Part shown: one piece after another, positions 7,008 through 62,372 of the stretch
How the letters are laid out: each line of letters begins with the position of its first letter
How positions within the stretch are numbered: position 1 is the stretch's first letter
Source of the DNA: Patescibacteria group bacterium
GTDB lineage: Bacteria > Patescibacteriota > Patescibacteriia > 2-12-FULL-60-25
DNA length: 64,000 nt
Direction of reading: 5' to 3'
Assembly: GCA_041658705.1 (NCBI GenBank)
Contig: JBAZZT010000004.1
Location: 30,758-94,757 of the forward strand
Position numbers and translations under genes: made by a program
Notes under the pieces: model-generated
What the model was told of the DNA's origin: nothing
The model's database searches: none
The model's input: only the letters and a program-made list of their open reading frames with translations

Positions 7008-7034
7008 TCAATTGGACGAAGGCGGTCGAAAGAT

Positions 7035-7493: not shown

Positions 7494-7588
7494 TTCTCTA
7501 TCCTTTCGTGTCGTTTCCTGCCCAGACAGCGTATCTGGGTTTCGGGAAATATTACTTATTTAGTCAGATATGTCAAGCAGCGACGGGT

Positions 7589-7615
7589 ATAAAAAAAGAC
7601 GTCCCTGGGGGACGC
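7589..7615 (-). terminator. Rho-independent terminator of CDS 7681..8151
   Basis: On the minus strand: gcgtccc..gggacg stem followed by tcttttttta. Confidence 0.55.
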
Positions 7616-7680
7616 CTTTCAACAGAGTCTTGGCATGATGATCATCACAGCCTCCTGGTTAAAGGTTCACTGCATTCGGT

Positions 7681-8151: not shown

Positions 8152-8240
8152 TCTCGACGCTCCTTTGGTGAAAGCACTTGGAATGTGCGGATTGACTGGA
8201 GAATATACACCAAAACAGCAGTCTTGTCAATTCCGAGGGG

Positions 8241-8310
8241 AGTAGTTAGCAGTTAGCATTTAGTAGTTAAAGCTAGGACCCTAACTACTATCTACTAAAT
8301 GCTAACTACT
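8241..8310. repeat. Low-complexity word hairpin (AGTAG/TTAGC words)
   Basis: agtagttagcagttagcatttagtagttaa .. taactactatctactaaatgctaactact forms imperfect inverted arms in a divergent intergenic region. Confidence 0.7.
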
Positions 8311-8434
8311 TGTTTATAAGAAAAGTCCCCCTAACGCCGCTTTTGTCAAGACCCACCAGGTGAGGTATAAAGAGTTCGAAACAGCAGGTTCATGAAGTTT
8401 TAAGCTTTAAGTTTTGAGTTTTGAACTAGCTCCT

Positions 8435-10875: not shown

Positions 10876-10897
10876 CCCTTCGTCCCTGAACAAAGCC

Positions 10898-11908
10898 ATG
10901 CCCACCAACCCCTTCGAAACCGCCCCGAATCTCACCACCTCCCACATCCGTCGGCAGGATTTGCCGACTCACGTCAGGCGCTACGCCGATAAACTCGCGG
11001 CGCAGATAAGAGAAATCTACGCCAAATACGGAGCCAAGAACTTCGAAGAGCTTAAAGAGAACAAGAAGCTGTCGGCGCAAGACGCACGCAAGGTGGCTGA
11101 TTTGTTCAAAGCCTTCAATGATGCAGTCGAGAAGAAAGAGGTCGAACCTGGGTTACAGGAAGCCATCGAAATCCTAGGTCGCGAAAACGTCCACGGCATC
11201 GAAGACGTAGAAGTCATGCTGGGGGATGGTTTTGTGGACGAATCAAAAGTCCCACCCATCCCATACACTCCTGAAGAGCTTGAGAAATCCAAAGAAATCA
11301 AAGAAAAGACCGGCGTCGAAGAGATGTTTGTCTTATTCGTCGCTGACAAGGACGGCAGACCGCTCACGGGAGAGCGCATGAACGAGCTCATCCAAGCTGA
11401 ATACACCAAGCTCGGGTTGGGCAAATTCCTGCTCAACACCGATTGGTACAAGAATGAGGACTTTTTTAAGAAGTTGGGTTTGAGCTACGAATGGAAACTC
11501 ATCACCAAACAAACCATCCCTGGTTCGAAGAACAAGCGTCATCACTACGAACCTGGAGACACCTTCACCCACCAAGACACCCAAGAATTCTCTATCGAGG
11601 AATACGCCGAGAAACTCGATATCCCTCGTGACCAGTTACAGCGCCCAGAGCCTTTCCAAATGCTCTATGCGGTTGCCCTTCATTTGATCGCGACGGAACG
11701 CCTCAACGGCAAGGGTAAAGGTGAACGCATCCTCGCAAAAGAGTATCACTGGTCCGATGTCCGCTCCTCGCATGGGAGCCTCGTGCGCGTGGGCGGCCAT
11801 GCCGATTCGGACGGCGCGCACGTGCACAGGAACCACCGTGGCGTTCAGGGCCTCGATCTCGACGTTTGTCTCTCGCGTGAATCTTCTTCCAAATCCTTGG
11901 ACACTTGA
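10898..11908 (+). CDS. Paralog B of the same family
   Basis: 336 aa, tandem to paralog A across a 22-nt gap, with the same conserved body and a divergent C-terminal block. Confidence 0.85.
   Translation: MPTNPFETAPNLTTSHIRRQDLPTHVRRYADKLAAQIREIYAKYGAKNFEELKENKKLSAQDARKVADLFKAFNDAVEKKEVEPGLQEAIEILGRENVHGIEDVEVMLGDGFVDESKVPPIPYTPEELEKSKEIKEKTGVEEMFVLFVADKDGRPLTGERMNELIQAEYTKLGLGKFLLNTDWYKNEDFFKKLGLSYEWKLITKQTIPGSKNKRHHYEPGDTFTHQDTQEFSIEEYAEKLDIPRDQLQRPEPFQMLYAVALHLIATERLNGKGKGERILAKEYHWSDVRSSHGSLVRVGGHADSDGAHVHRNHRGVQGLDLDVCLSRESSSKSLDT
11762..11908 (+). other. VR-like hypervariable block 2 (3' end of paralog B)
   Basis: Same anchors (cgctcctcg ... tcgcgtga). Relative to the TR-like element it carries one extra codon and one missing codon. 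Confidence 0.55.
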
Positions 11909-11939
11909 TTCTTGATACTTTGACCCTTGGTCTGCTTAA

Positions 11940-13020: not shown

Positions 13021-13379
13021 ACTTAGTCCATGCATGCGCGAGGATGACATTAATATTATGCGCTCGCCACGTCGTTCGCGAGCGACGTGGCGAGGAGTAG
13101 CGGCGACGAAGTCGCGTCAGACGTGTCGAAACAATCTCCGAAAGCCAGAGATCCCGGCTCAAGGCCGGGATGACAAATAACAATCATCCCGCGCCCCCCT
13201 TCCGTTATCCTCCGCCCCCTCCCTGTCATCCTCCGGTTTAACCGGGGGATCCAGAGAGAGAAACCTTTCCAATGTTTTCAAGGTCTGGATTACCCGGTTG
13301 AACCGGGTAATGACAGGGTTGTTTTTTTGTCATCCCGCACTTGATGCGGGATCTCCGGAGATTGCTGCGCGTTTTTGGG

Positions 13380-14909: not shown

Positions 14910-15000
14910 TGTCAGCCTGAGCCTGTCGAAGGACCTTTATCAGCCTAACGATTTGCTGCTAAAGGTCCTTCGACTCGCTCGAAGCTCGCTCAGGATGACA
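14910..15000. repeat. Inverted-repeat element of the TGTCATCCTGAGC..GAAGGACC family
   Basis: tgtcagcctgagcctgtcgaaggaccttta .. taaaggtccttcgactcgctcgaagctcgctcaggatgaca. Confidence 0.8.
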
Positions 15001-15010
15001 ATCTATCTTC

Positions 15011-15045
15011 CTGGCTACCCTCTACTCTCTACCCTCTACCCTCTC
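15011..15045 (+). repeat. CT-word leader (GGCTACCCTCTACTCTCTACCCTCTAC) directly upstream of gyrA
   Basis: The same roughly 30-nt word precedes yidC (44248..44276) and rbfA (22692..22720, minus strand). Confidence 0.8.
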
Positions 15046-17705: not shown

Positions 17706-17729
17706 TGACTGGCGACGAGTGCCTATGCT

Positions 17730-17843
17730 GATAAAGGTCCTTCGGCTGCGCTGCTGCTCCGCTCAGGATGACAATCCTGTCCAGGATGACATTTTTTCTA
17801 CAGCTCTCTTCACTGTCATCCTGAGCCTGTCGAAGGACCTTTT
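17730..17843. repeat. TGTCATCCTGAGC..GAAGGACC family copies
   Basis: gataaaggtccttcggctgcg..ccgctcaggatgacaa .. ctgtcatcctgagcctgtcgaaggacctttt. Confidence 0.8.
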
Positions 17844-17866
17844 GCAGCGACCGATTGTCTTTTGGG

Positions 17867-21227: not shown

Positions 21228-21240
21228 GGATCGACTATTT

Positions 21241-21362
21241 TGTCGTCCTGAGCTTGTCGAAGGATCTTTTTAAGTGTCTCGTCTGAATCAGTCAACGGTT
21301 GATAAAGGTCCTTCGACTGCGCTACGGCTCGTCAGACGAGCCTGCGCTCCGCTCAGGATGAA
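21241..21362. repeat. TGTCATCCTGAGC..GAAGGACC family inverted-repeat element
   Basis: tgtcgtcctgagcttgtcgaaggatc .. gataaaggtccttcgactgcg .. ccgctcaggatgaac. Confidence 0.8.
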
Positions 21363-29076: not shown

Positions 29077-32000
29077 ATGCTTCCCGCGTGGCTGTCCAAA
29101 AATAAAAACAAGTTCGTCCTCGGAGGACTGACCCTCGTCCTGGCCTTGGGTACGGTCATCGTGGCCTATCCGAAGAAAGCGGAAGCGAGTTTGTTGCAGG
29201 CTGATCCGAACGCGGCTATCGCGGCTCGGGCGCAACTTTGCGGCTACGTGACCGGTGCCGGCACTTCTCCGGGCGCGACTTCGATCATCGGCTTGATGCC
29301 GGAATGCCATTATTACGAAATCTACAAGGCCAAGGTGGACATGATCCAATCCACCATCCAGTTCGGAGTGGTGCGGGCTTTGCTCGGCGCGCTGCAATAC
29401 GGCACGCAGATGATCGCCCAACAGACGGCGCAGTGGATTCTCGAAGGCGCGCACGGTAAACCGTCATTCTGGACCATGAACTGGGGAGAATTCCTGGCCA
29501 ACGTGGGCGAGGACGCGGTCAACCGGTTCATCGGCGAACTGGATAAGACCATGCAGGGTTGGGGCTTGGGCAGCTTGTGTACGCCCATGTCGCTCAACAT
29601 GCGTTTGGCTTTGTACATCAAGCCCATCGTGCCGCAGGCCTTTCAAGGTTGCGACTGGGCCAAGATGAAGGGCGCGTTCAACCAGACAAAAAATACTTTT
29701 TCGCCCACCGAAATCGCGGCAAATTTGCGCAAGTCGGTCCAGCCCGGAGGCAACCAGATCGATATGATGCTCAAGGTGAACAGCGAAATCCTGGTGAACA
29801 AGGAGGCGGCGGAGAAGTGGTATGAAAAACAACGTATTGAGACGCGCGGCTTCAAATCGATCACCGATTTGATCAGCGGCAAGATCAAGACGCCGGCCGA
29901 AGTCGTGGACGAGACGGTGCGCCAATCCAACGTGGTCAAGCTGCAACATGACGTGACCACGGCGGACATCAATGCGCTGGCCATGGCCGCGTTCTGGGCT
30001 GGGTTCGAACAGTTGCCGCAAGTCGCTGCCTCGCAATTCCTGAACACCTTGGCCGTGGGCGCATTGCAGAAGTTTTTCACTTGGATTTTCGGCGGCATGA
30101 CGGGCGGCGACGAGACTTGGTATAATCTCGATTTATCCGATCCATTCGCGCAACGCAGTGCGCAACCCAAGACCGACGCATTGCAAAAAGCCTTTTCGGA
30201 CATGATCATCCCTGATCTGTTCACCAATAAAGACGAAGATTTCGTATTTGAGATGACGTCTTGCGTCGAAGGCAGCCGCTCATATTGGGGTTGCAGCATG
30301 GACGAAGGGTTGGCTCAAGCGCTGCGGGCCTCGGCGGAAAGCGGGGCTTATACCGTGGCGCGTGCAGCCGGCATCGGCGGCACCGGAGCGAGCGAATATC
30401 TGCACAAAGATTGGGAGCTGATTCCCGAAAGCGAAGTCAAGGATAACCAGGATTCGGGTTGCTACCAGCGCGCCTACTGCGCCTCGAACCTGGCCAAGCT
30501 GCGCTTTGCGCGCATCATCCCGTTGGGCTGGGAGCTCGCCGCCAATTCACCTTTCAACGTAAAAGCCAACGGCAGATATGTCACCTTGGGCCAGGTCGTC
30601 GCGGGTTTCAACTCCTGCAACGCCCAAGGACAAGTCGACGCCGAGCATCCGTGGTGCCATCTTATCAATCCCGCTTGGGTGCTTACGGCGCCGCCTTTCA
30701 AATGCCAACTCAAAGGCTATGGTACGACCCTGGCCGCGCCGGACACGCCGATGCGCCAGCAAGAATGCAGCGACCTGGTCTCCTGCTTGAAGCGCGATGA
30801 CAAGGGCAAGTGCTTGGGCCAATACGGATCATGCTTATCCGAAAAGACGGTGTGGCGTTTTGGCGCCGACTCGTGCGACCAGAAGTTCGTGAGTTGCCGC
30901 ACCTACCAGTCGCGCGCCACCGGCGCACACCAAGGCCAGAACGTATCCTATATAAGGAATACCATAGATTACGGATCGTGCAACCAGGATAACGTGGGTT
31001 GCCTGTATTATGCGACGACGCGCGACGTCACGACGACGAGCACCGAGCGCTGGGTGGCCACGACGCTCGAAGTCAAAAACAAGAAGGGCGCATTGGCCGG
31101 TTATGACATCCGCCAGATGCCGCGCGTGTATTTTGATGCCACGGTGCAGGCTTGCGATGCGTCGTCCGATGGTTGCACCAAAGTGCAGCGCGTCAATCCC
31201 GGCAGTCCGGCGTTCAACCTCGTGCGCAACGGTTCCTTCGAGGACAATTTGGACAACCTGCCGGACAAACTCGTGGCTTGGTTCGACGACAACGATAACC
31301 CGGTCGGACAGAAACCGTTCAACCCGGCGACGGGTCCGGCTTACCAAAGCGGCCAAGCGAGCTACTACAACGCCACGACGCACCAGCCCGTCACTCTTTA
31401 TCCCTACCGCCCCTACGTCTTGTCTTTTTACGCTCGTGCCGACGGGGGAGCCGCTCCCGACGTGCAGGTATTTTTGGATCTGTATCAGGCACCGAACAAG
31501 CCGGTCGTTACAACGGGTCCGGCGGTCTACCGCAGTTCCAATTGCAGCAAAAAAACCCAGACTTCAGTCGGTTTGAGCAGCTTCAAACCGGGCAACGATT
31601 GGCAGCGTTATACCTGCGAGTTCAGTTCCAACCCGGATGTGCGTTTGGGCGTGCTGAAGATATCCGTCAAGAACGCGGCGCTGGATGACGTGCAGCTTGA
31701 GGAGGCTGATCGCGCGACGGATTACATCGATGGCGCAGCGGACAATCTTCCGGTCGAACATATCAAACTGCCGCCGGAGGAATTGGGTTGCAAGGGCGAT
31801 GCCAAGACAGACCGCAAAGAGTGCGCGGATTATGCGCTCATGTGCCAAGCCACTGAAGCCGGCTGCCAGGGTTGGAGCGACGCGGGGGATGCGAGCGGAA
31901 TCGAAATCCCGGCCATCGTCTCGCCGCTTGATCGCTGTCCCAAGAGCTGCGTGGGTTACGCGGAGTATCGCAAATTGCCCTCGGCTTTCGATCTGGTCAA

Positions 32001-35000
32001 CACAGGCAACCCCACTGATCCGCAGAATGATTCCGCTGACGACACCGCGGCTTCCTTCGTGCCGAGCAAAGCCCAAGCTTGCAGCGCCGACGAAGCGGGT
32101 TGCGAAGAGCTGACTAATCTTGAAGCTTCGGCGCAAGGTGGCGAATCAAAACTTTTCTTGAGCTATGCGCGGGCTTGTAGCAAACCGGGTGACGATGCCA
32201 AGACCTTCTTCACCTGGGAGGGTTCGGAGGAGACGGGTTATCAATTGCGCACCTGGAGTTTAGTCAAAGAGCTTAACGCGGAGGGTCCGAAAATCCTGCT
32301 CAAAGCCGGTCCGGACGGCGTGCTCAAGGATCCGCAAGCCTGCACTGCCGCGACGTGGTCAGCCAAGACCGATTTGGATTGTCGTCAATTCTACGACGAG
32401 ACGGGCAAGGACTATTACCGTTATTATTCGCAAACCATCATCTCGAGCGTGGACTGCCGCGATTACCGCAAGAACAATTCGACTTCGGACGATTGCACCA
32501 AGACGAGCGGCGACCCGAATAACTACAATCCGACCAACAAAGCCTGCATCTATCACGTGCTGGCGAGCTTGAGCAACCAGTGCAAGGAAACCAACGCGGG
32601 CTGTCGCGGCTACCTGGGCACGACCGGGCGCAACACCGCGACCGTGTTGCACGAGACTTTCGCCGCCGCGACAAGCTCGCTTTTCTACGCGCCGAACAAT
32701 CAAAAGATCAAGATTTCAAACGAGGCGTTGCTGGTCGGCGATCATTCGCTGCAGATCCAAGCCAGCGACGCCAGCGTGGATTTCACTTCAGCCACCGGCA
32801 GCTTGTACACCGTGAGCTTCTGGCTCAAGACGACCAAAGCGGGGAGTGCACCGGCCAGCTTGAAACTGGGCAACACGGTCGTGGGTACGTTCAGCCTGGT
32901 GCCCGACTGGAAACGCTTCGAGGTCGGACCGTTCAAGGCCGTCGGCACCAAATCAAAGTTGACTTGGAGCGGTTTGCCCGATCCGTCCTACCTGGACGAA
33001 GTCGCGGTGGTCCGTTTGCAGGACGTGGTTTACGTCAAAAAAGATTCGTGGGTCATCCCGCCCGAGTGCGACCAGACTGCCGAAGGCATCCCGCAGCCGC
33101 GCGCCATGTTGGGCTGCCGTGAATACAAGAATCGCGCGGGCAAAGTCGAGGACGTGCGGCAATTTTCGCGCCTGTGCCGCTACGCCAGCATCGGCTGTAC
33201 CGCTTACGTCGACACACGCAACTCCGACAGTCCCTATGCCGAGACTTTCAAGCTCACCGGGCTGAACGTGCCGGATCCGAACAATCCCGCGAGCAAACTG
33301 TGGGATACGCTGTACGCGGGCGATTCAGTCGTCACTCGGCTGGCGGACCGCTATGTCTATGCGGTCGACGAGCCGGGCGTGCATTGCGCCGCCGACCAAG
33401 CTTCGTGCCGCGCGTTCGGCAAACCCACCTTCGATCCCACGGGTGCGCCATCCAGCACCTTCGAGACGGTTTATCTCAAAGACGACATCACGCAATATAT
33501 GGATGCGGGCGGCGAACCCAAGGCCTTGTGCCGACCCAAGGAACTTTTCTGCGATAAATTCACCAGCGGACAAGTCACCTCGTATTTTCGCGATCCGCTG
33601 AATCACGTCTGCGAATGGCAAGATAAAGTGGCGCTCAATAAATTCCCTGGACTGCCCGACGGCGAATATTCCGGTTGGTTCGTGATCGGCGCCGCAGTAC
33701 CCACGCCGTGTTATCCCGAAAAGATCTCGAGCGGCAATACCTTTTTGAGCGAATATTCCGGCACGCCTAATTACCGTGGTTGGACGGACACTTGCCCGGT
33801 CGAACAGTCGGAGTGCACCGAATATCGCGATTCCAACGATCACACCGACCTGGAACACCCGCAGGGCAAACCGTATTATTTCGTCGACAACAACCGGCTG
33901 GATAAAGCTTCGTGCCAAGGCAAAGTAGATCTGCTTTCCGGCTGCGTGCTGTTCCGCGACATGAACGACAGCCGCCTGACCTACAGCACCGACGCGACCT
34001 ATGCCAAGTCGCACGCGGACGGCGACGTATCCGTCGCACCAATCAATTGCAGTACCGATGCTGACAATCCGGCTTGCCAAAAAGTCGGATACTGCGTTAA
34101 CCAAAGATTCAAGATCTGGAGCAATACGAAGCAAGCCTACACGGGAGAGTCGTCGGACATGACGCAAATCCAAGAAACCAAGAAGCATATAAATGATAAA
34201 TGTACGACCGACAAAGATTGTTCGGTGACGGCGTCGGCCGTCGGTCCGTTGGCTGACGAATATCGTATTACCGGAACTTGCCAAGCCAATGACTCCAACC
34301 TGCTCGTCAAGGTAAAACTCGATCGCGATTGCCAGACCTGGCTCGGTTGCGCCAGCGGCGAGACCGTCTACGATCCGGTGCAGCAGAAGTACAAAGATTT
34401 ATGTACCGAACTCGCGACGTGCGACAAGGCGGGCGGGACGGGCAACCAATTCTGCTCGCATTACGTAGACCGTGTCAGCGCGCCGTCCGGCGTCGGTTTT
34501 CAGGAAAAAGTCATGCGTCAGGGCGCCTTCGTGGATTCCACGCTCTACGCTTCGCGTTCGGTCGGCTTCGGCGATCCGGATTATTCCAGCTTCAGCTTGC
34601 CGTACCATTTCCAAATCGCCGATCTGCAGAACCGGGCCGTGGGCTTTGAGCTCCTCGCGAACCATGCCGGTAAGGTGCGCAACAGTTACTCCGACGACTT
34701 CCGCCTGACCGCGGCCGTGCCCTTGGCGTTTGGCGGTTTTAACGCCCTCGATCCCTATGCCGCGGACATCATCAAAGACAATTTATATCCTTACCTAAAC
34801 CTGTGCCGCCATCGCCAGACCAAGGCCGTGGGTTATTATTTGGCCGACCCTGGGGATACGGCTATCCCGCGCAAACCAACGGAAAAAGTACCGCGCTGTT
34901 ATTTGGCGATTGACCGACCATATACCCAAGTCGCCTCCGACCTCCAAGGTTCGGGCGTCAACCCGCGCAACGCGCAGAATTTGGCTGATGTGTTCGAGCA

Positions 35001-38000
35001 GTCGGGCAACGTCAAGGCCAACCAACAACTTACCCAAGCCTTCCCTAATTCAGAATGCCGCTCATATCCCGAGACCAATTCTCCGTTCGACGCGCGCTTC
35101 GTCAAAGATTGGAATCTGGATGCCGAACCGCCCACGCCGCTGAATCTCGTCGAAGGTTACGCTGGCGTGCCGACTTGTGAGTACGGCGAAAATTGCGATT
35201 GCAGCTATCAAAAAGTCAATTACGCCAACCGTTCCAAATATTACGCGGCGTACGGCGCATCTTTCCCGCCCGGCGTGTGCCAGGGCGGTGATAAGGACGG
35301 GCAGGCTTGTCGTCCCAACGAGGGAAGCGGAGCCGTTGCGCTCACTCTTGCGCCGACGAGCACCGCAGGCGGCAGTGAAATCCCGGACATGAACCTGTGC
35401 ACCGGCGGCGGCTCTTGCGTGCCTGTGCAATCCTACAGCTTGATCCGTGGCATCGCCGGACAATGTTTGCAGCGCGACAATGCGCGCACCCTGGGCGGCG
35501 CCAAGGAATACAATCCTTGCTTGGTGTGGAATCCCGCGCCGGTGTTGTTCGGCAAAGATGACATCTACCATTATTATCCGACGGCCGGCTATCTGCCGCC
35601 TGCCGAATCAGGGGAGTACTACTGCGTCTCGGATGCGCGCGAGCCCCGCAGCTTCAAAACCAGCGTGGAAAACAACATCATGGGTTGGAATTGGTTCGAT
35701 AAAGATAATCCGCTGGTCTTGATCCAGAAAAATCTTGATACCTCCATCATCGCCGAACCACCGGGCAAGATGACGGCATTCTGGTTCGATGAATGTTTCA
35801 GCATGGATCCGGGCGGCGCCTCGGACAGCGACCTGCCCTTAGGTTGGTCCGGCATGCCCGGGTTTACGGGCAGCGGCAACGACGACGACTTCTACGAAAG
35901 AGCTTGTGGCTGGGGACACGCCTCGATCGACGGGACCAACGCGCGCGGCACGGATTCCGGAGCGAGTTGCGCTTGGGTCAGGACGCAGAATTCCGGCGCC
36001 AACATGGCGGCTGATTTTACGGCCGGCCGTTGGGTGACGACCGGACAGGGCGTGAGCCGGAACTACGCGGAATATTTCGTGCCCATCAATGGCAAGTATT
36101 GGGCCAAGTGGCTTTTGCAAAGCAAGACGGATCCGGGGGAAGTCGACATCAAGAACGCGCTGCTCGAAAAGAATTTCAGCTATTTCGACTTCAAGCCGCT
36201 CTACAAGACGGGCGCCGGCGGCGGAGCGTGCTCCTTGAGCGGCTGGTGGGCGGATGAGTTCCCGTTGGAGGGGACTGCCGCCGGCGTGGACAAGGGGCAG
36301 AACCAACTGATCAAGAACATCATGGCCGAGTGGAGCAAACTGACGTCGCAAAAATCCGATTTCGTGCGCAACCAAAAAGGCGAGCTCATCAAACTGCCGT
36401 GCTTATACAACGACAAGAACACGCAGGATGAGTCGGCCGACGATTATTGCTACTACAAATTCTGGCAAGCGGATTTTCGTGGCCAAGGCGCCAAAAAATT
36501 CCAGATGATGGATGATGACTTCGGCGGCGCGCACAAACTTTCCGCCCCGGACGTGCTCTACATGGAATCAGACGGTTCCAAGCCGTTCTTCTCGATCCGC
36601 GCCATGTTTGAGGACGCTTCGCTGACGGACAACGCCATCAAGGAAGAGGACATCAAAGGCAACAGCGGCAAACTGGGCGGCCCCTTCCGCTTCGTGGGTT
36701 GGTGGGTCACGGCCTCGTTCCCCGGCGCCAGCAACAACCGCTACATCTACATGACGCTCGATATCGGCCACGCCGACATCTGCAAAGAGGTGGCGCGCGT
36801 CAGGTCCTCGGTCAACGGCGACAGCGTGGCGTTCACGGATCGCGTTTGGGACGGATCAGGCTTTAGCCTGCCGCTCCTGGGTTATCTGTACGGCGAGACG
36901 AATGCACCGTTCGGTTCGGCGCGGCACACACGTGAGATCGGCATGGAGCCGCTGTTCCAAGTCAAAGACAAGAAAGTCGCCGCCAACTTCCGCATGAGCG
37001 TGGCGAAGCCGACTTTCATTTCCGCCGGCGCCAAATTTTTCCGCTTGGGTGAGTTGCCCAAAGCCAATTGGGCCTGGCTCTCCAACCTGTTCGCCAAAAT
37101 CTACAACGTCTACCGCTATTACGATTTGCCCGTCGACAAGTCCTCCTACGCCTGCGTGAGCGGGCCGCAGTTCGGCAAACGCTGCTCGCCGGATCCGCTT
37201 TCGAGCCAAAGCACCTGCGGCTGGCAGGGCACCTGCAACCCGACCCTGCTCCAAGTGGATGCGGGAAGCGCTTTCTGCAACTCGCTGTCCGGAGTGAACG
37301 CCGGCCAAGCCTGCGGCGCCGGCGGAGGCAGCGGACTCGGCAGCTATCATGTATGCCACGCTGCGCCTTTGCGTAACGTTGGCGGACAGCTCGCGCCGCA
37401 ATATGCGCCGTGCCAGGTGGATTCCGCGCTGTGGAGCACTAATAATGATCATTATACCTACACAGGCACGGCCAGTTCCGATCCGTTCAATGCTGTGACC
37501 GTGCAACATTGCATAGACGCCAAATCCACAAACTGCATTAACCTCACGCGAGCCACGGCGGCCCAGGCCGGAGCCTTCAAGTGCGCCAACAACGCCGTGC
37601 ATTTCCCCGACGGAACCCGCGCCTGGTGCCGCAAACCCAGCGGCGGCAATGCTTCGACGGATTGTCCGATTGAAGTGCACGGTGATTGCGATGGCACGGC
37701 AGGGCATTGCGCACCCGGCTGGCGCGACGGAACGTACCAGGCTCAAACCGGAGGATACGAATACGTCAAATGCAGCAATAAGGATTCGGATTCCGCATGT
37801 TCATTCACCTGGCAGAACTGGTGGTACAACGATATGAAGAGGGCTTCGGGTTTTCCTGAAAAGCCCATGCCTTACCCGGATGAACACGCCATCGTTGCAC
37901 AAGTGCAACACGCTGAAGGCGCGTTCTTCAACGTCCAAGTCGATCCCATCAACGGCAGTTACCCGATCAACACCAACTATCCGGTGAACGGTTGGGTGCC

Positions 38001-39963
38001 TGACCCGGCCACGGCCGCCAACATAAAGATCGAAGGCAACCTGTGGTGGATGGGCGGGGATTGGGGCGCTTGGGGTCAAATCGGCGATACCAACGGCGCT
38101 GATCCGGGCAAGGATATCGGCAGCAAGAATTTGGCCGGCGCCAGATATCTTGACCGGGCCGATTGGCAGGGCCTCAACAGATTCCCCGGAGCTTTCGTCT
38201 TCGCCGTGTCGGGGCAATATCTGTCCTGCAACGGTCCTGGCGATTGCGGAACTAAGCAATGGAGCGAGATGTACATCCCGGGACACTGCGAAGCGTTGCC
38301 CGTCGATTATCACGAGTGCGCAAATATCAAGAAACATGCTGATGCCATGGGGGAGGTGAAGGACTATAACAACGACGGTAAAAATGAGTGCCCGAACACC
38401 CCAGACATTCCGAATTATTCCTTGGTGACGGCCCAGCAATGGGGCGGAGGTCAGATTACCCTAACGAGATGGCACGGTGATAGCGCATCCAAGCTTGGTA
38501 TCTGCGAAGGCGGCGGGAATGAGGGCGGTTTCTGCACGGACAGCAAGGATTGCAAGCCGCTGTGGGTGGGCGGTAAGGAAACAGTCGAGTCGATGGAGTA
38601 TTGCAAGTCCGTGTCGAAAACTGACGGCACTCCGAACTCCGGCGCGTTCGGTGGCACGGCCTGGAGCTGTTTAGCCGATACCGGGGACCCTAACTCGAAC
38701 AACCCTGACCTTGACAACAACAGCTGTACCCATGGCGCCGGATATCAGAAGAGACCCGATGTGTGCGGCTTGGATCCCAATCGCGCCGATTGCCTGACCG
38801 GCATCTTGGAACGGGATACGGTCTCACCGCCGTCTTATGACCAAGCCCAAAGGACGCCGCCGACTGACGTGACCGCCGGCCTGTTCACGCCGTCTTACAT
38901 CGCGAAGTTCAACAATAATAACGACACGAGTTTGGCGCGGAATTATTCCTACATGGCTTACTACGCGCCGCGGCCGCCGCAGATCGCGGCACCTGACACC
39001 TCGCGCCAATGCCCTGGCCCGGGACAATGCCCCATCGCGCAAGTCGGCGCTTTCAGCCTGGACGGTACAAGCGAGGGCAAAGTGGCGTATGTCGGCGGGC
39101 AAGCCTTGTCTACGATTCGTTTCTACGGCTGGGCCGCGGACGATCAAGCCGGCCTCAAGGATCTGATCGTCGATTGGGGAGATGGACATCGCCAGCAGTA
39201 TCGCGACGTGCAGATGAAGAACAAAAAACCGTTCTGCGGCAGCACCAGGGAATGCGAATTCACGCCCGGCCTAAGCTGCACCACGGATCGCGATTGTCCG
39301 CCTTCGGCCGGCCGTTGCATCGAAGCTGGATTCTGCCAGAGCCAGCCTGCCCAACGCTGCCACCAGGACGCGGATTGCACGGCTCCGGGCGCAGCAGCGG
39401 AGGACAAGTGCGTGACTAGGCTCACCTTCGGCAACAGCGATGAGGATTGCGAGCAAAATTATTTCGAATTCACTCACGTCTACTCGTGTCCGCAGGTCAA
39501 TAATTTGGAGGCGTGCGGCGCGACATCGAGGTGCTCCGGCGACAATGACCGACCCTGCGCCGCCAACAATCCTTGCGCGCCGGGCGATCAATGCGTGGCT
39601 GGTTTGGCCAAGAGCGGCGGTTGCTTTGACAGCCAATTCTCATCTTGCCGCTTTACCCCCAAAGTTTATCTCAAGGATAATTGGGGTTGGTGCGCGGGCG
39701 AGTGCCGTAACGAAATCGCAGGCGGCAAACTCTCGGGCGGATTCGGAACCACCAACAAAGCGCTTTTGCCCAACGGCGGTTGCTACGGCGGTACGGATAT
39801 CTATCAAAACAGCGACGCCAAAGCGCTGCGGCCAGTCGGGACCGATGCGGCGAACAAGAATGTCTACGACATGTGTGACCCAGATAAATTCGTCGGACAG
39901 AAGACCAGTTATCGACCCTGGGTCGTATTCAAAGGCGCGCTGCAGTTGGGGGTAGGGAAGTAG
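29077..39963 (+). CDS. Giant secreted / cell-surface Cys-rich protein (3628 aa)
   Basis: Uninterrupted 10.9-kb ORF with an N-terminal signal/anchor FVLGGLTLVLALGTVIVAYP. About 138 Cys by hand count. Recurrent C-x5-6-C-x2-3-aromatic units. Two CBM/jelly-roll-like segments (NLVRNGSFED..LDDVQLEE; YTVSFWLKT..YLDEVAVVRL). PKD-like VDWGDGH near the C-terminus. Confidence 0.9.
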   Translation: MLPAWLSKNKNKFVLGGLTLVLALGTVIVAYPKKAEASLLQADPNAAIAARAQLCGYVTGAGTSPGATSIIGLMPECHYYEIYKAKVDMIQSTIQFGVVRALLGALQYGTQMIAQQTAQWILEGAHGKPSFWTMNWGEFLANVGEDAVNRFIGELDKTMQGWGLGSLCTPMSLNMRLALYIKPIVPQAFQGCDWAKMKGAFNQTKNTFSPTEIAANLRKSVQPGGNQIDMMLKVNSEILVNKEAAEKWYEKQRIETRGFKSITDLISGKIKTPAEVVDETVRQSNVVKLQHDVTTADINALAMAAFWAGFEQLPQVAASQFLNTLAVGALQKFFTWIFGGMTGGDETWYNLDLSDPFAQRSAQPKTDALQKAFSDMIIPDLFTNKDEDFVFEMTSCVEGSRSYWGCSMDEGLAQALRASAESGAYTVARAAGIGGTGASEYLHKDWELIPESEVKDNQDSGCYQRAYCASNLAKLRFARIIPLGWELAANSPFNVKANGRYVTLGQVVAGFNSCNAQGQVDAEHPWCHLINPAWVLTAPPFKCQLKGYGTTLAAPDTPMRQQECSDLVSCLKRDDKGKCLGQYGSCLSEKTVWRFGADSCDQKFVSCRTYQSRATGAHQGQNVSYIRNTIDYGSCNQDNVGCLYYATTRDVTTTSTERWVATTLEVKNKKGALAGYDIRQMPRVYFDATVQACDASSDGCTKVQRVNPGSPAFNLVRNGSFEDNLDNLPDKLVAWFDDNDNPVGQKPFNPATGPAYQSGQASYYNATTHQPVTLYPYRPYVLSFYARADGGAAPDVQVFLDLYQAPNKPVVTTGPAVYRSSNCSKKTQTSVGLSSFKPGNDWQRYTCEFSSNPDVRLGVLKISVKNAALDDVQLEEADRATDYIDGAADNLPVEHIKLPPEELGCKGDAKTDRKECADYALMCQATEAGCQGWSDAGDASGIEIPAIVSPLDRCPKSCVGYAEYRKLPSAFDLVNTGNPTDPQNDSADDTAASFVPSKAQACSADEAGCEELTNLEASAQGGESKLFLSYARACSKPGDDAKTFFTWEGSEETGYQLRTWSLVKELNAEGPKILLKAGPDGVLKDPQACTAATWSAKTDLDCRQFYDETGKDYYRYYSQTIISSVDCRDYRKNNSTSDDCTKTSGDPNNYNPTNKACIYHVLASLSNQCKETNAGCRGYLGTTGRNTATVLHETFAAATSSLFYAPNNQKIKISNEALLVGDHSLQIQASDASVDFTSATGSLYTVSFWLKTTKAGSAPASLKLGNTVVGTFSLVPDWKRFEVGPFKAVGTKSKLTWSGLPDPSYLDEVAVVRLQDVVYVKKDSWVIPPECDQTAEGIPQPRAMLGCREYKNRAGKVEDVRQFSRLCRYASIGCTAYVDTRNSDSPYAETFKLTGLNVPDPNNPASKLWDTLYAGDSVVTRLADRYVYAVDEPGVHCAADQASCRAFGKPTFDPTGAPSSTFETVYLKDDITQYMDAGGEPKALCRPKELFCDKFTSGQVTSYFRDPLNHVCEWQDKVALNKFPGLPDGEYSGWFVIGAAVPTPCYPEKISSGNTFLSEYSGTPNYRGWTDTCPVEQSECTEYRDSNDHTDLEHPQGKPYYFVDNNRLDKASCQGKVDLLSGCVLFRDMNDSRLTYSTDATYAKSHADGDVSVAPINCSTDADNPACQKVGYCVNQRFKIWSNTKQAYTGESSDMTQIQETKKHINDKCTTDKDCSVTASAVGPLADEYRITGTCQANDSNLLVKVKLDRDCQTWLGCASGETVYDPVQQKYKDLCTELATCDKAGGTGNQFCSHYVDRVSAPSGVGFQEKVMRQGAFVDSTLYASRSVGFGDPDYSSFSLPYHFQIADLQNRAVGFELLANHAGKVRNSYSDDFRLTAAVPLAFGGFNALDPYAADIIKDNLYPYLNLCRHRQTKAVGYYLADPGDTAIPRKPTEKVPRCYLAIDRPYTQVASDLQGSGVNPRNAQNLADVFEQSGNVKANQQLTQAFPNSECRSYPETNSPFDARFVKDWNLDAEPPTPLNLVEGYAGVPTCEYGENCDCSYQKVNYANRSKYYAAYGASFPPGVCQGGDKDGQACRPNEGSGAVALTLAPTSTAGGSEIPDMNLCTGGGSCVPVQSYSLIRGIAGQCLQRDNARTLGGAKEYNPCLVWNPAPVLFGKDDIYHYYPTAGYLPPAESGEYYCVSDAREPRSFKTSVENNIMGWNWFDKDNPLVLIQKNLDTSIIAEPPGKMTAFWFDECFSMDPGGASDSDLPLGWSGMPGFTGSGNDDDFYERACGWGHASIDGTNARGTDSGASCAWVRTQNSGANMAADFTAGRWVTTGQGVSRNYAEYFVPINGKYWAKWLLQSKTDPGEVDIKNALLEKNFSYFDFKPLYKTGAGGGACSLSGWWADEFPLEGTAAGVDKGQNQLIKNIMAEWSKLTSQKSDFVRNQKGELIKLPCLYNDKNTQDESADDYCYYKFWQADFRGQGAKKFQMMDDDFGGAHKLSAPDVLYMESDGSKPFFSIRAMFEDASLTDNAIKEEDIKGNSGKLGGPFRFVGWWVTASFPGASNNRYIYMTLDIGHADICKEVARVRSSVNGDSVAFTDRVWDGSGFSLPLLGYLYGETNAPFGSARHTREIGMEPLFQVKDKKVAANFRMSVAKPTFISAGAKFFRLGELPKANWAWLSNLFAKIYNVYRYYDLPVDKSSYACVSGPQFGKRCSPDPLSSQSTCGWQGTCNPTLLQVDAGSAFCNSLSGVNAGQACGAGGGSGLGSYHVCHAAPLRNVGGQLAPQYAPCQVDSALWSTNNDHYTYTGTASSDPFNAVTVQHCIDAKSTNCINLTRATAAQAGAFKCANNAVHFPDGTRAWCRKPSGGNASTDCPIEVHGDCDGTAGHCAPGWRDGTYQAQTGGYEYVKCSNKDSDSACSFTWQNWWYNDMKRASGFPEKPMPYPDEHAIVAQVQHAEGAFFNVQVDPINGSYPINTNYPVNGWVPDPATAANIKIEGNLWWMGGDWGAWGQIGDTNGADPGKDIGSKNLAGARYLDRADWQGLNRFPGAFVFAVSGQYLSCNGPGDCGTKQWSEMYIPGHCEALPVDYHECANIKKHADAMGEVKDYNNDGKNECPNTPDIPNYSLVTAQQWGGGQITLTRWHGDSASKLGICEGGGNEGGFCTDSKDCKPLWVGGKETVESMEYCKSVSKTDGTPNSGAFGGTAWSCLADTGDPNSNNPDLDNNSCTHGAGYQKRPDVCGLDPNRADCLTGILERDTVSPPSYDQAQRTPPTDVTAGLFTPSYIAKFNNNNDTSLARNYSYMAYYAPRPPQIAAPDTSRQCPGPGQCPIAQVGAFSLDGTSEGKVAYVGGQALSTIRFYGWAADDQAGLKDLIVDWGDGHRQQYRDVQMKNKKPFCGSTRECEFTPGLSCTTDRDCPPSAGRCIEAGFCQSQPAQRCHQDADCTAPGAAAEDKCVTRLTFGNSDEDCEQNYFEFTHVYSCPQVNNLEACGATSRCSGDNDRPCAANNPCAPGDQCVAGLAKSGGCFDSQFSSCRFTPKVYLKDNWGWCAGECRNEIAGGKLSGGFGTTNKALLPNGGCYGGTDIYQNSDAKALRPVGTDAANKNVYDMCDPDKFVGQKTSYRPWVVFKGALQLGVGK

Positions 39964-40000: not shown

Positions 40001-40011
40001 CGGAAAATGAA

Positions 40012-40112
40012 TTGTCATCCTGAGCGAAGCGCTAGCGAAGTCGAAGGACCTTTATCAGCCATCGGTTCAGACCAGCGCTTAAAAAGGTCCTTCGACAAGC
40101 TCAGGACGACAA
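40012..40112. repeat. TGTCATCCTGAGC..GAAGGACC family inverted-repeat element
   Basis: ttgtcatcctgagcgaagcgctagcgaagtcgaaggaccttt .. aaaaaggtccttcgacaagctcaggacgacaa. Confidence 0.8.
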
Positions 40113-40152
40113 ATAAAAAAAGAGCCCTCTTCGGAGTCGAAGAGGGTTTTTC
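40113..40152. terminator. Bidirectional rho-independent terminator
   Basis: A-run, then ccctcttcg gagt cgaagaggg, then ttttt. Lies between convergent genes. Confidence 0.7.
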
Positions 40153-41109: not shown

Positions 41110-42150
41110 ATGCCCGCCAACCCCTTCGAAACCCCTAAAAGTAAAATAGCCCCTGAACCTGTCGAAGGGCTACCTTATACTTCCGGGATTCGTCGGCAGG
41201 ATTTGCCGACCCACGTCAGGCGCTACGCCGATAAACTCGCTGCGCAGATAAAAGAAATCTACGCCAAATACGGAGCCGCTAACTTCGAGCAGTTAAAAGA
41301 GAACAAGAAGCTATCAGCTCAAGACGCACGCAAGGTGGCTGATTTGTTCAAAGCCTTTCAGAAAGCCATCGAGACTAAAGACGTTGAACTAGACCTCGAA
41401 GAAGCCATCGAAATCCTGGACCGCGAGAATGTCCACGGCGTTGAGGACGTCGAAGCCATGCTAGGCGAAGGTTTCGTCGATATCTCCAAAGTCCCACCCA
41501 TCCCATACACTCCTGAAGACCTAGCCAAATCCAAAGAGATCAAAGAGAAGACTGGCGTCGAAGAGATGCTCATCCTCTTCGTCGCTGACAAGGACGGAAC
41601 GCTACTCACGGGAGAACGCATGAACGGACTCATCCAAGCTGAATACACCAAGCTCGGCCTGGGTAAATTCCTGTTCAACACCGACTCATATAAGAACGAG
41701 GACTTCTTCAAGAAGCTGGGCTTTAACTACGAATGGAAGCTCATCTCCAAACAGACCATCCCCGATTCAAAGAACAAGCGCCATCATCACGAACCAGGAG
41801 ACAGCTTCACGCATCAAGACACCCAAGAGTTCGCCATCGAGGAATACGCGAAGAAACTTGATATTCCACGTGACCAATTACATCGTCCAGAGCCGTTCCA
41901 GATGCTCTACGCCACCGCTCTCCATCTGATTGCGACCGAACGCCTCAATGGCCAGGGCAAAGGCGAACGCATCCTCGTAAACGAGTATCACTGGTCTGAT
42001 GTTCTTTCCTCGGATGGGAGCTCTGTGCTCGTCGGCTATGCCGATGCGGACGGCGCGCGCGTGAGCGGGAGCTCCCGTGTCGCTCGGCTTGGTGGTCTGG
42101 GGGTGGGTCTTTCGCGTGAGCCTTTTTCTTCCAAATCCTTGGACACTTGA
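41110..42150 (+). CDS. Paralog C of the variable-protein family, adjacent to the TR-like element
   Basis: 346 aa. Same conserved body as 9832..10875 and 10898..11908, with a divergent C-terminal block. Confidence 0.85.
   Translation: MPANPFETPKSKIAPEPVEGLPYTSGIRRQDLPTHVRRYADKLAAQIKEIYAKYGAANFEQLKENKKLSAQDARKVADLFKAFQKAIETKDVELDLEEAIEILDRENVHGVEDVEAMLGEGFVDISKVPPIPYTPEDLAKSKEIKEKTGVEEMLILFVADKDGTLLTGERMNGLIQAEYTKLGLGKFLFNTDSYKNEDFFKKLGFNYEWKLISKQTIPDSKNKRHHHEPGDSFTHQDTQEFAIEEYAKKLDIPRDQLHRPEPFQMLYATALHLIATERLNGQGKGERILVNEYHWSDVLSSDGSSVLVGYADADGARVSGSSRVARLGGLGVGLSREPFSSKSLDT
42004..42150 (+). other. VR-like hypervariable block 3 (3' end of paralog C)
   Basis: Same length as the TR-like element. 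By hand count, 18 of 26 template adenines are substituted versus 14 of 91 other positions over 39 codons. Confidence 0.65.
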
Positions 42151-42175
42151 TACTTGACCCTTGGACCCTTAATTT

Positions 42176-42203
42176 TTGTTTTCGAATTTTTTTTTGGTAG
42201 AAT
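42176..42203 (+). promoter_or_regulatory. Candidate promoter (TTGTTT, 16-nt spacer, extended -10 TGgTAGAAT) for the TR-containing transcript
   Basis: ttgttt tcgaattttttttt tgg tagaat. Confidence 0.45.
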
Positions 42204-42439
42204 AATCACAGGTCATCCCGCTGCGGTGCGGCGGAATGTGCGGTCGGCAACGGTCGCATGGCTGTTGCACTCCTCGATTAAGGTCGCGGGGTCGCCTGCC
42301 TAATAAAAGAAGCTCACTGCTTGTCCTGTCCTGAAGCGGACTCTGACGGGGTCAGAGAGCGGCCGCTGCGTGATCATACAATGGGAACCGCCGGGATTTG
42401 GTCGAACCCATGCTGCCCAAGATGGGACAGGACAACAGA

Positions 42440-42586
42440 CGCTCCTCGGATGGGAACTTTGTGAACGTCGGCAACGCCGATTCGGACGGGGCGAACGTGA
42501 ACAGGAATTCCCACGACAATCGGAACGACAATCTCGGCGTTTGTCTTTCGCGTGAGTCTTTTTCTTCCAAATTCTTGGACACCTAA
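42440..42586 (+). repeat. Template-repeat (TR)-like copy of the paralogs' C-terminal block, Asn/AAY-rich
   Basis: Conceptual translation RSSDGNFVNVGNADSDGANVNRNSHDNRNDNLGVCLSRESFSSKFLDT. It has 9 Asn codons (AAC/AAT) among the 26 codons from GNF to DNL, exactly where the three VR blocks vary. Homology to the paralogs starts abruptly at cgctcctcgg. Confidence 0.65.
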
Positions 42587-42703
42587 CTCTTGAAGTTTGG
42601 ATTTTAGCATCAGCCTTTTTTCATCCGTCGATTTGGGGCTCATCTTGCATCGGACAAGCCTCGAACTTGACTTTTTTACCACCTTACTCTATTCTATGCG
42701 CAT

Positions 42704-42733
42704 ACTCGTTCCGGTTGGACGAGTTTATTTATT
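42704..42733 (+). terminator. Rho-independent terminator after the TR region
   Basis: actcgt tccggttgg acgagt followed by ttatttatt. Confidence 0.5.
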
Positions 42734-42736
42734 AGG

Positions 42737-42809
42737 CAATTACAAATGCCAAATGCCAAATTACAAATTATCCGTCAATTTGGCATTCGTAATTTGTAAT
42801 TTGTAATTG
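42737..42809. repeat. Word hairpin (ATTACAAAT/GCCAAAT words) ending 5 nt before the nusA ATG
   Basis: caattacaaatgccaaatgccaaattacaaatta .. aatttggcattcgtaatttgtaatttgtaattg. Confidence 0.85.
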
Positions 42810-42814
42810 TATAT

Positions 42815-44182
42815 ATGGCCTCCCCAATTTCCCAAGCTATCCGACAGGTGTGCGACGAAAAGAATTTGTCTTACGAATCCGTGCTTGAGACGGTCGAAGC
42901 GGCATTGGCCGCGGCTTATCGCAAGGACTTCGGCAATAAGAACCAGAACATAAAAGTCCAGTTCGATCCCGAGACGTATGACGGTGCGACGGCCGGCATC
43001 CGGGTTTTCGACGTGAAACAGGTGGTCGAAGACATGGAGCTGCCGCCGGACTATTTCGAGAAGTTCGAAGCCGCGCATGCCATCAAAAAGGATGCGCCGC
43101 GCCCCTCCGACATCATGCGCACCGCTCCTCCGGCACTCGCGCCGGCCGAGGAAGCCGCGCCGGCGGGCGAAGGCGAAAAGGCCGAAGACGAATTCGTCTT
43201 CAACCAAAAGACCATGATCATGTTGTCCGACGCGCGCGACCTCAAACCCGATGCGCAATTGGATGACGAGATCAAAGTGGAGTTGTCCGTGCCCGCGGCG
43301 TTCGGCCGCATGGCGGCGCAGACGGCTAAACAAGTCATCATGCAAAAGCTGCGCGAAGCCGAGCGCAACGTCATCTTCGGCGATTTCAAGGATCGCGAAG
43401 GCGAGCTCATGAACGTGACCATCCAGCGCCGCGAAGGCCGGGTCGTGCTCATCGACTTGGGTCGCGCTACGGGTGTGCTTTTGCCTGAAGATCAAATCGA
43501 AACCGAGCGTTATTTCCCCGGCGTGCGCATCAAAGCCATCCTGCGCGAAGTCACGATGACCAACAAGGGTCCGGAGATCCGTCTGTCGCGTTCGAGTCCC
43601 GGGCTGGTGGCCGCCATCTTCGCCCAAGAGATCCCGGAGATCGCCAACGGCATCGTGGAGATCAAGAACATCGCGCGCGAAGCCGGTTCGCGCACCAAAG
43701 TCGCGGTCACGGCGCATGACGACGCCATCGATCCCATCGGCTCGTGCATCGGACAGCGCGGCACGCGTATCCAGACCATCATCCGCGAACTGGGCGGCGA
43801 GAAAGTCGATGTCATCAACTGGTCGGCGGACGACGCGGAATTCATCACCGCGGCGCTTTCCCCGGCCAAAGCTTTGGATATCCGTTTGGACGCCGGGAGC
43901 CACTTGGCCACGGTCCATGTGCCGGCCGACCAACTCTCGCTGGCCATCGGCAAAGGCGGACAGAACGTGCGTTTGGCCGCCAAGCTTTCCGGTTGGAAAA
44001 TCACCGTCGCCGAAGAAAGCGGCCGCAAAGTCGCCGACTCCGACGTGGGCGAATTTGCAGGCGAAGAGAAACCTGAAAGCGCAGCCGAAGCGGACCAAAA
44101 AGAAGAAGTAACCAAAGTCGAGATCAAGGCGACTGAAGAAACACCTCTCGAATCCGAGAATAAGGAAAAAAAGAATTTATAA
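42815..44182 (+). CDS. nusA: Transcription termination/antitermination factor NusA
   Basis: 455 aa. NusA N-terminal domain, S1 domain (GELMNVTIQRREGRVVLIDLG) and KH domains (GSCIGQRGTRIQTIIRELGGEKVDVI; LAIGKGGQNVRLAAKLSGWKI). Confidence 0.95.
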   Translation: MASPISQAIRQVCDEKNLSYESVLETVEAALAAAYRKDFGNKNQNIKVQFDPETYDGATAGIRVFDVKQVVEDMELPPDYFEKFEAAHAIKKDAPRPSDIMRTAPPALAPAEEAAPAGEGEKAEDEFVFNQKTMIMLSDARDLKPDAQLDDEIKVELSVPAAFGRMAAQTAKQVIMQKLREAERNVIFGDFKDREGELMNVTIQRREGRVVLIDLGRATGVLLPEDQIETERYFPGVRIKAILREVTMTNKGPEIRLSRSSPGLVAAIFAQEIPEIANGIVEIKNIAREAGSRTKVAVTAHDDAIDPIGSCIGQRGTRIQTIIRELGGEKVDVINWSADDAEFITAALSPAKALDIRLDAGSHLATVHVPADQLSLAIGKGGQNVRLAAKLSGWKITVAEESGRKVADSDVGEFAGEEKPESAAEADQKEEVTKVEIKATEETPLESENKEKKNL

Positions 44183-48160: not shown

Positions 48161-48203
48161 ACTTTGCTATCGTCATTTTTTTAAAACTGAAATCCATAGA
48201 GAA

Positions 48204-48289
48204 TGTCATTCTTGAGGCCGTCTGACGGCCGAAGAATCTTCCAATTCCTTAAGGTATAGGAAGATCCTTCGCGTTGCTCAAGGATGACA
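48204..48289. repeat. Diverged TGTCATyCTGAG..GGATGACA inverted-repeat element
   Basis: tgtcattcttgaggccgtctgacggccgaagaatctt .. aagatccttcgcgttgctcaaggatgaca. Confidence 0.7.
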
Positions 48290-48326
48290 TTTGCTTAGAT
48301 ACTGTCCTGGCATCATCGGCACCCGC

Positions 48327-57135: not shown

Positions 57136-57151
57136 TTTGTGCATCGTTTTT

Positions 57152-57260
57152 TTGTCATGGCGAGCGCATATACTGAATGCGCGCGGCAATCTCCGGATTC
57201 CAGAGATTGCTTCGTCGCGTTAAACGCGACTTCGTCGTTGCTACTCCTCGCAATGACAGG
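57152..57260. repeat. TTGTCATGGCGAGCGCATATAC..GCAATGACA inverted-repeat element
   Basis: The left arm matches 18516..18563. The internal gcaatctccgg and cgacgaagtcgcg words match 13090..13140. Confidence 0.75.

Positions 57261-60866: not shown

Positions 60867-62372
<1,506 letters not shown>

Follow-up and report, generated by a model that had tools for sequence, protein, structure and literature searches.

Diversity-generating retroelements (DGRs) use error-prone reverse transcription to alter the tips of proteins. Surveys of DGRs begin from the reverse transcriptase (RT), and RT-less template cassettes and drifting target families therefore go unseen. To our knowledge, that of Bordetella phage BPP-1 is the only DGR that has been studied biochemically, and we take its RNA to be the RT-10 motif of Rfam/Weinberg. 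This RNA is composed of 20 nt of avd, the template repeat (TR), and a 140-nt spacer (Sp); the flanking RNA structure is required by RT-Avd, and the spacer primes and limits cDNA synthesis (bioRxiv 10.1101/2023.10.23.563531, PMC5737381). Some DGRs act on remote targets, and a plasmid can supply functional avd, TR, and brt in trans (PMC5758913). The largest number of non-adjacent targets reported by Wu et al. in 2018 was seven (PMC5758913).

The canonical Patescibacteria DGR loci used here for comparison were L003/L058, L004, L005/L059, L048, L057, L062, L063, L065, and L067, which are probably to be counted as putative members of the Patescibacteria-restricted "DGR clade 2" (Roux et al. 2021, PMC8144416). 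They display a common order. The target gene or genes end in the variable repeat (VR) and the IMH, and in most cases a GC hairpin comes next. A TGnTAnnnT box then precedes ~190 nt of non-coding sequence, which leads into the TR. Beyond the TR lie a strong hairpin followed by a U run, an antisense bAvd gene (PF22296), and an RVT_1 RT gene. The ~190-nt stretch 5′ of the TR, referred to here as the leader, was present and strongly covarying in 10/10 of the canonical loci sampled. The RT was within about 500 nt of the TR in 10/10 of these relatives, in line with the statement of the initial annotation that canonical DGRs keep the two side by side. In L003, the longest RT ORF (7340-8626, + strand) overlaps bAvd (7208-7588, - strand), and this overlap reaches up to about 250 nt in canonical loci. 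Since the RVT_1 match in the canonical RT ORF begins at residue 150, it is probable that the true RT start lies downstream of bAvd and that automatic ORF calls can hide bAvd. LOOT RNA (Rfam RF03000, 64-73 bits) was detected in L062 (4429-4557), L058 (3666-3800), and L059 (4443-4556), about 140-370 nt downstream of the RT gene. A 182-212-aa ORF devoid of Pfam domains begins shortly after it in L059 and L062. LOOT RNA was absent from L003, L004, L048, L063, and the DNA analyzed here.

Template repeat, variable repeats, and target paralogs

The window, i.e., the whole stretch of 64,000 nt (64 kb) that was analyzed, otherwise contains housekeeping genes (rpoB, rpoC, gyrA, smc, nusA, yidC, groEL, and prfA). 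The 16S rRNA (60867-62372) was the only Rfam match over the 64 kb, and ARAGORN revealed no tRNA gene. A 3628-aa ORF (29077-39963, + strand) with no Pfam match is located just upstream of the target locus. Intergenic palindromic elements of ~100-120 nt, belonging to one blastn family, occur at 40004-40116, 14910-15023, 17727-17849, and 21239-21324, with termini of the TGTCAT...ATGACA type (e.g., TGTCATCCTGAGC...GCTCAGGACGACA). Similar termini were seen by eye at 13221-13318, 48198-48311, and 57150-57260, which gave no blastn match to this family. Copies of the family and of the 48198-48311 element are present in several related-genome loci (77-99% identity). The palindromic elements are MITE- or REP-like, with no associated ORF. 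The features of the cassette and of its surroundings are listed in Table 1.

Table 1. Cassette, target paralogs, and adjacent nusA region, with positions in the window
Feature	Coordinates	Strand	Basis or remark
Target paralog 1, 347 aa	9832..10875	+	tblastn, 80% identity to paralog 3; carries VR1
VR1	10732-10880	+	blastn of TR; 3′ end of paralog 1
Target paralog 2, 336 aa	10898..11908	+	TR/VR match; carries VR2
VR2	11765-11915	+	blastn of TR; 3′ end of paralog 2
Target paralog 3, 346 aa	41110..42150	+	ORF; carries VR3
VR3 and IMH-like part (about 42107-42165)	42007..42165	+	159-nt repeat with TR, A-biased mismatches
Extended -10 box TGGTAGAAT, T run before	42195..42203	+	sequence; conserved in related loci
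5′ extension, two hairpins (42218-42234; 42238-42259 with GCAA loop)	42209..42259	+	fold
Conserved DGR leader RNA domain	42260..42442	+	covariance model R1, covariation
Leader P1	42260-42296	+	GGC...GCC closing a hairpin
Leader A-rich linker plus CACUGCUUG	42297-42323	+	
Leader P2, 5′ arm TTGTCCTGTCC and 3′ arm GGACAGGACAA	42321-42331 and 42425-42435	+	long-range helix
Leader P3, AGCGG/CCGCU	42335-42367	+	encloses hairpin 42341-42357
Leader inner hairpin, CTCTGAC/GTCAGAG	42341-42347/42351-42357	+	
Leader motif UCAUACAA	42374-42381	+	
TR	42443..42601	+	direct repeat with VR3; adenine-rich; in-frame read SSDGNFVNVGNADSDGANVNRNSHDNRNDNLGVCLSRE...
Cassette tail with U run CCTTTTTTC (42614-42622)	42602..42658	+	not conserved in sister cassettes; absent from L015
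nusA leader, outside cassette	42659..42814	+	95% identical in cassette-less L015
Promoter-like site in nusA leader	42667-42695	+	just before terminator-like hairpin
Terminator-like hairpin and T-rich tail	42704-42724	+	terminator scan
AT-rich inverted repeat, 33-nt arms	42737-42809	+	in nusA leader
nusA	42815..44182	+	Pfam NusA_N and KH_5

The TR and VR3 form a direct repeat with an offset of 436 and an identity of 75%. VR3 passes through the stop codon (42148-42150) of target paralog 3, comprising the final 48 codons of the ORF plus 15 nt, and the VR corresponds to the last 48 codons in each of the three paralogs. The two VR-bearing paralogs located at 9832-10875 and 10898-11908 had been overlooked in the initial annotation. 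The in-frame translation of the TR (SSDGNFVNVGNADSDGANVNRNSHDNRNDNLGVCLSRE) is rich in residues encoded by AAC/AAT codons, and the first 100 nt of the TR contain 25 adenines. In the blastn alignment of the TR (positions 1-128) with VR3, mismatches affected 18/28 of the TR adenines versus 13/100 of the other positions (Fisher p=2e-7). Adenine enrichment of the TR mismatches was also observed with VR1 (p=0.002) and VR2 (p=1e-4), and these biases in three VRs bear out the recognition of a TR-like element by the initial annotation. The 3′ part of the homology is invariant, GTCTTTCGCGTGAG and the next about 45 nt being common to the TR and the VRs; this IMH*-like part of the TR begins at about 42543.

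Comparison of 39 distinct VRs of the family, put in register with the window TR, revealed that the entropy was 1.66 bits at TR adenines versus 0.62 bits elsewhere for TR positions 1-100 (p=1.8e-12). There was no adenine bias in the IMH-like zone (TR positions 101-148), with entropies of 0.57 and 0.59 bits. Nearest homologues across genomes displayed an identity of 0.2-0.48 at A sites versus 0.76-0.95 at non-A sites, with the exception of window VR1 and its counterpart in L015 (0.92 at A sites and 0.95 at non-A sites). The target family was clearly diversified in the past by a DGR with a TR resembling that of the window. On the basis of these sequence comparisons, 42443-42601 is a true DGR template repeat. 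Window VR1 (10732-10880) is near-identical to the VR of L015 at 3105-3255, in the gene of the nusA locus, despite an overall identity of 86% between the two genes. Such a pattern points to conversion between paralogous genes or to selection that has frozen the VR.

Homologues of the target protein (61 listed) all came from Patescibacteria, to which the family is restricted, and the WC641_ locus-tag prefix of one related MAG was borne by more than 25 of those listed. A metagenome scan with the target protein provided 50 loci. DGR targets carry the VR at the C-terminus of a protein with a C-type-lectin (or Ig) fold. Target paralog 3 gave no domain match in a Pfam search and no sequence match in the PDB, and its AF2 model (pLDDT 65, low confidence) gave no Foldseek match. 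The C-terminus of the target displayed 28-31% amino acid identity to the C-termini of the AAA-type targets of canonical DGRs. In L004, a second target of 323 aa (6949-7920), located beside the AAA-type target, has the WYKNEDFFKK motif in common with the 346-aa family of the window, which ties the orphan target family to an RT-bearing element. L068, a 5494-nt contig whose length had hinted at a linked RT, carries a remote target alone, with no leader, TR, or RT.

The structured leader RNA

The extended -10 promoter reported by the initial annotation is present in the window, and 14/14 related loci have a TGnTAnnnT box at the corresponding position before the homologous RNA. A sigma-70 scan did not list the box because it has no -35 element. 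The promoter is followed by a 5′ extension seen only in RT-less copies of the window type, in which its stem is kept via one-sided and two-sided changes (L006, L025, and L033).

Covariance model R1 was built from ten canonical RT- and bAvd-bearing loci only, with the window and its close relatives excluded. R1 matched the window at 42260-42451 over its full length (model positions 1-191) with a score of 34.6 bits (E=1.3e-10). This was the sole significant match in 64 kb, the runner-up having an E value of 0.82. R1 also matched the sister copies L008 (in the same place as L006), L025 (E=1.7e-10), and L033. A match in L007/L009 (886-1008, - strand; E=0.003) was taken as chance, as it covers ~120 nt for a 191-position model.

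Covariance analysis of the leader across related loci revealed extensive compensation. In an alignment of 14 sequences, 93.8% of the cells were paired, and 23/32 pairs displayed compensatory changes in alignment A7, which was fitted to the model, versus 21/28 in the MAFFT-based alignment A4. None of 500 shuffles was as good (0/500). Sliding the partners by 1 to 3 columns reduced pairing to 35-48%, with compensatory changes in at most 9 pairs. Folding of the leader as a single sequence was non-significant (z=-1.5); the decisive evidence is comparative. The 11-bp helix previously noticed on the 5′ side of the TR pairs as described and corresponds to P2, which covaries across 14 loci: nine versions of the P2 sequences were found, with pairing maintained. 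The local ctctgac/gtcagag hairpin is likewise present, cgtcccg/cgggacg substituting for it in L033. A 7-nt linker separates the 3′ arm of P2 from the TR in the window, and the gap between P2 and the TR reaches about 15 nt in relatives. The window and canonical leaders share the long-range helix, an inner GCGC helix, and the motifs GGCUnnUG, UCGCC, CUGCUU, AUAnA, and A-rich linker. The description of the 5′ region as structured is thus upheld by covariation and by the R1 match, and its description as GC-rich holds in relative terms only, with a value of 0.60 for 42204-42442 versus 0.56 for the window, and of 0.30 and 0.37 for its spacers. The comparisons establish the stretch preceding the TR as a genuine structured RNA that shares ancestry with canonical DGR leaders.

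The possibility that this locus is unrelated to DGRs, with chance helices and with a TR that is merely the displaced 3′ end of some paralog, may derive some comfort from the single-sequence folding score (z=-1.5) and from the many TR/VR mismatches outside adenines. This reading is, however, already contradicted by the bias of mismatches toward A sites (p=2e-7), the VR variability that follows the TR adenines (p=1.8e-12), the match of a model derived from RT-bearing DGR loci (E=1.3e-10), and the strong covariation (23/32 pairs), and we regard it as extremely improbable.

Rfam 15 gave no match to the leader RNA in the window, at the gathering threshold or at E<=10, or in the canonical loci. For the region 42100-42850 (E<=10), it returned only chance miRNA-like matches to the AT-rich repeat and neither RT-10 nor any retron family. 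Assignment of the cassette to the retrons was rejected, since there was no RT and no Rfam retron match. No description of the leader RNA was found in the literature searched, and screening IMG/VR with a leader pattern retrieved only one contig, itself among those already analyzed.

The 3′ side of the TR was less conserved. The initial annotation had placed a priming spacer in the ~120 nt following the TR. This assignment is not supported, since the region is unconserved in sister cassettes and has no notable fold, and its distal half belongs to the nusA leader. Folding revealed no stable hairpin in the cassette tail (42602-42658). The hairpin at 42704-42724, proposed as the terminator of the cassette, does exist, but it is not cassette-specific and belongs to the nusA leader. 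The inverted repeat at 42737-42809 (CAATTACAAATGCCAAATGCC... / ...GGCATTCGTAATTTGTAATTG), located between this terminator-like hairpin and the nusA start codon, differs by one base in the relative L015 and may be a nusA leader or regulatory element. An RNA of the BPP-1 type, with a structured 3′ spacer, was also rejected for the cassette in view of the lack of an RT-10 match and of a 3′ flank that was unaligned and without significant fold. In canonical relatives, a strong hairpin with a U run directly follows the TR and precedes the antisense bAvd gene, leaving no room for a 3′ spacer similar to that of BPP-1, so that the BPP-1 arrangement does not apply there. By its position, and by analogy with BPP-1, the leader would be the sole candidate for the RT-Avd-binding RNA in these relatives. 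Visual inspection of the leader for conserved complementarity to the TR 3′ end or to the U run of the terminator, as a priming site, gave no consistent candidate.

Search for RT and Avd and drift of the repeats

As stated in the initial annotation, nusA follows the TR in the window, where it occupies the position of bAvd and RT in canonical relatives, and the 64 kb contain no RT or Avd gene. A Pfam search of about 40 window ORFs, including the 3628-aa ORF, detected neither RVT_1 nor bAvd. A tblastn search of the whole window with the RT and Avd proteins of relatives was also negative (best E=0.25), and low-stringency tblastn with five bAvd proteins gave no match in the window, with no avd or RT remnant after the TR. 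RT and Avd were also absent within 10 kb of the sister cassette L006/L008 and from about 550 kb around some 40 related paralog loci. Two RT protein searches, with L003-type and L048-type queries, returned no protein tied to the WC641 MAG among the best 120 matches of each, the matches being named proteins without locus tags. For the genome itself, the search covered the 64 kb of the window, and the related loci represent an estimated quarter, roughly, of one related MAG.

Comparison of the mismatches at A and non-A sites distinguished the window from the ten RT-bearing relatives. In the latter, the VRs differed from the TR at 13-22 adenines and at only 0-2 other positions. The window VRs displayed 13-18 A mismatches and 13-17 non-A mismatches to the TR (12 non-A mismatches for L006). 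The window cassette is thus devoid of the adenine-only differences that are the mark of a currently working DGR. Across 39 VRs, the minimum number of non-A mismatches to either of the two TRs (window and L006) was 11. Pairwise comparison of the three window VRs also gave differences at 13-17 of 85 non-A sites, indicating that no TR is homogenizing them. The private non-A changes of the window TR at positions 33 and 48 are likewise missing from all three window VRs, in accordance with inactivity. The orphan cassette therefore has the A bias, the IMH, and the leader of a DGR template and lacks the RT, the Avd, and the adenine-only differences of a complete DGR.

Sister loci displayed various degrees of erosion. 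In the L006 TR, 6/25 adenine positions are changed, all from A to G; in L033, the 3′ half of the TR is scrambled; and in L025, the leader is kept and the TR is absent. L015, which together with L011 represents one organism with flanking genes about 92-95% identical to those of the window, is syntenic on both sides (about 88-94% nucleotide identity) and runs from the stop codon of the target straight into the nusA leader, with no cassette. The initial annotation had left three options, an orphan, trans-served, or decaying cassette. The 13-17 non-A mismatches, the eroded sister TRs, and the cassette-less L015 make decay the best of these. We propose, with a probability of roughly 0.6, that the locus is the decaying template half of a formerly active multi-target DGR.

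According to this proposal, the promoter would drive a structured leader RNA of ~240 nt directly followed by the 159-nt adenine-rich TR. On the model of the BPP-1 RNA, the leader would act as an RNA scaffold binding RT-Avd, and the 12-bp closing helix P2, which stops 7 nt (window) to about 15 nt short of the TR, might mark the end of the cDNA. The RT and Avd genes would have been lost from the locus in this genome. The former substrates of the cassette would have been paralogous proteins of surface type, encoded by a dispersed family with three members in the window. No TR would have rewritten the VRs for a long time, leading the TR and the VRs to drift apart, and the relic would retain an intact-looking promoter, leader fold, and TR.

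Several observations count against a relic. The window promoter is intact. The leader fold is also intact in the RT-less copies, with one mismatch in P1 and P2 in the window, and compensatory changes in the leader distinguish the window from L033 and are seen even within the group formed by the window, L006, and L025. The TR of the window has its full length and has lost none of its AAC/AAT codons; its mutagenized part carries just two private non-A changes. Finally, A sites are randomized between nearest homologues of genomes that both have RT-less cassettes. This randomization could reflect activity that continued after the separation of the RT from the TR.

These observations raise the question of a live cassette served in trans, in which a distant RT-Avd would use the leader and the TR, with homing being rare or occurring at unsampled paralogs. 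In addition to the intact promoter, leader fold, and TR, the low A-site identity of nearest homologues (only 0.2-0.48) and the retention of RT-less cassettes in two related lineages (the window and L006/L008) are consistent with such a service. The targets are in any case dispersed genome-wide, with dozens of them in each related MAG and three in the window, and remote targets and plasmid-borne avd, TR, and brt acting in trans are known (PMC5758913). In contrast, 39/39 VRs displayed at least 11 non-A mismatches to either TR versus 0-2 in RT-bearing relatives, the window VRs are not homogenized at non-A sites, the sister TRs are eroding, and the RT is within about 500 nt of the TR in 10/10 canonical relatives. 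None of the best 120 matches of each RT search was tied to the related MAG, although this is a weak test. We therefore consider service in trans to be unlikely, albeit the most serious competitor of a decaying relic.

The leader might also be kept as an exapted small RNA acting independently of reverse transcription, the TR being a passenger in the process of being lost. Of the cassette parts, the leader alone recurs in all four RT-less copies; it is complete in L025 and preceded there by the promoter (covariance model E=1.7e-10) with no TR, and it is kept with compensatory changes in L033, in which the 3′ half of the TR is scrambled. However, the leaders of the window, L006, and L025 have diverged (about 12%) at least as much as the neighboring gene or the non-A sites of the TR, providing no sign of extra constraint. 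The leader is moreover always located after a target paralog, the L025 leader is not followed by a terminator-like site, and the closest relative has no leader at the nusA locus. Exaptation thus appears improbable, and a decaying template half remains our preferred reading.

Comparison with known systems

The leader RNA is the part of the locus that appears to be undescribed. It is tentatively conceivable, at odds well below even, that it represents a new class of DGR RNA, with the scaffold located 5′ of the TR (a permuted RNP), and that stand-alone cassettes are used in trans or exapted for dozens of paralogs. Should the leader prove to do the work of the BPP-1 spacer, the architecture of the DGR ribonucleoprotein would not be universal, and the leader would provide a sequence handle to find DGR templates without relying on the RT. 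The locus shows what a DGR looks like after the loss of its enzyme, and the number of non-adenine TR/VR mismatches (0-2 versus more than 11) offers a simple yardstick of activity.

The window cassette derives from the DGRs of Patescibacteria and resembles the canonical ones in its extended -10 box, in leader helices P1, P2, and P3, and in the location of the TR directly after the leader, with TRs that are 75-80% identical over 95-120 nt. It differs from them by the presence of nusA instead of bAvd and RT, by the lack of a strong hairpin terminator after the TR, by the additional 50-nt 5′ hairpin extension of the leader, and by a TR/VR homology that is about 50 nt longer and extends beyond the stop codon. 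Its targets form a dispersed multi-copy family, whereas the canonical loci read have one or two targets each. Similar to BPP-1, the TR is embedded in a longer non-coding RNA and is flanked at its 5′ end by a helix of about 11-13 bp, which in BPP-1 is the "cPRT stop" duplex. In BPP-1, however, the structure is located 3′ of the TR and 20 nt upstream suffice, whereas ~190 nt of structure precede the TR here. As in the Treponema and Legionella DGRs (PMC5758913), one TR corresponds to several VRs in paralogs located far apart, but these DGRs keep the RT by the TR and their remote VRs differ only at adenines. In the family described here, more than 25 paralogs are found in one related MAG, and all VRs have drifted. 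The retron msr-msd RNA is also a structured non-coding RNA with a long-range closing helix and its own promoter. In retrons, nevertheless, this RNA is directly followed by the RT and a TR/VR pair is lacking, whereas the homologues of the leader are located in DGRs.
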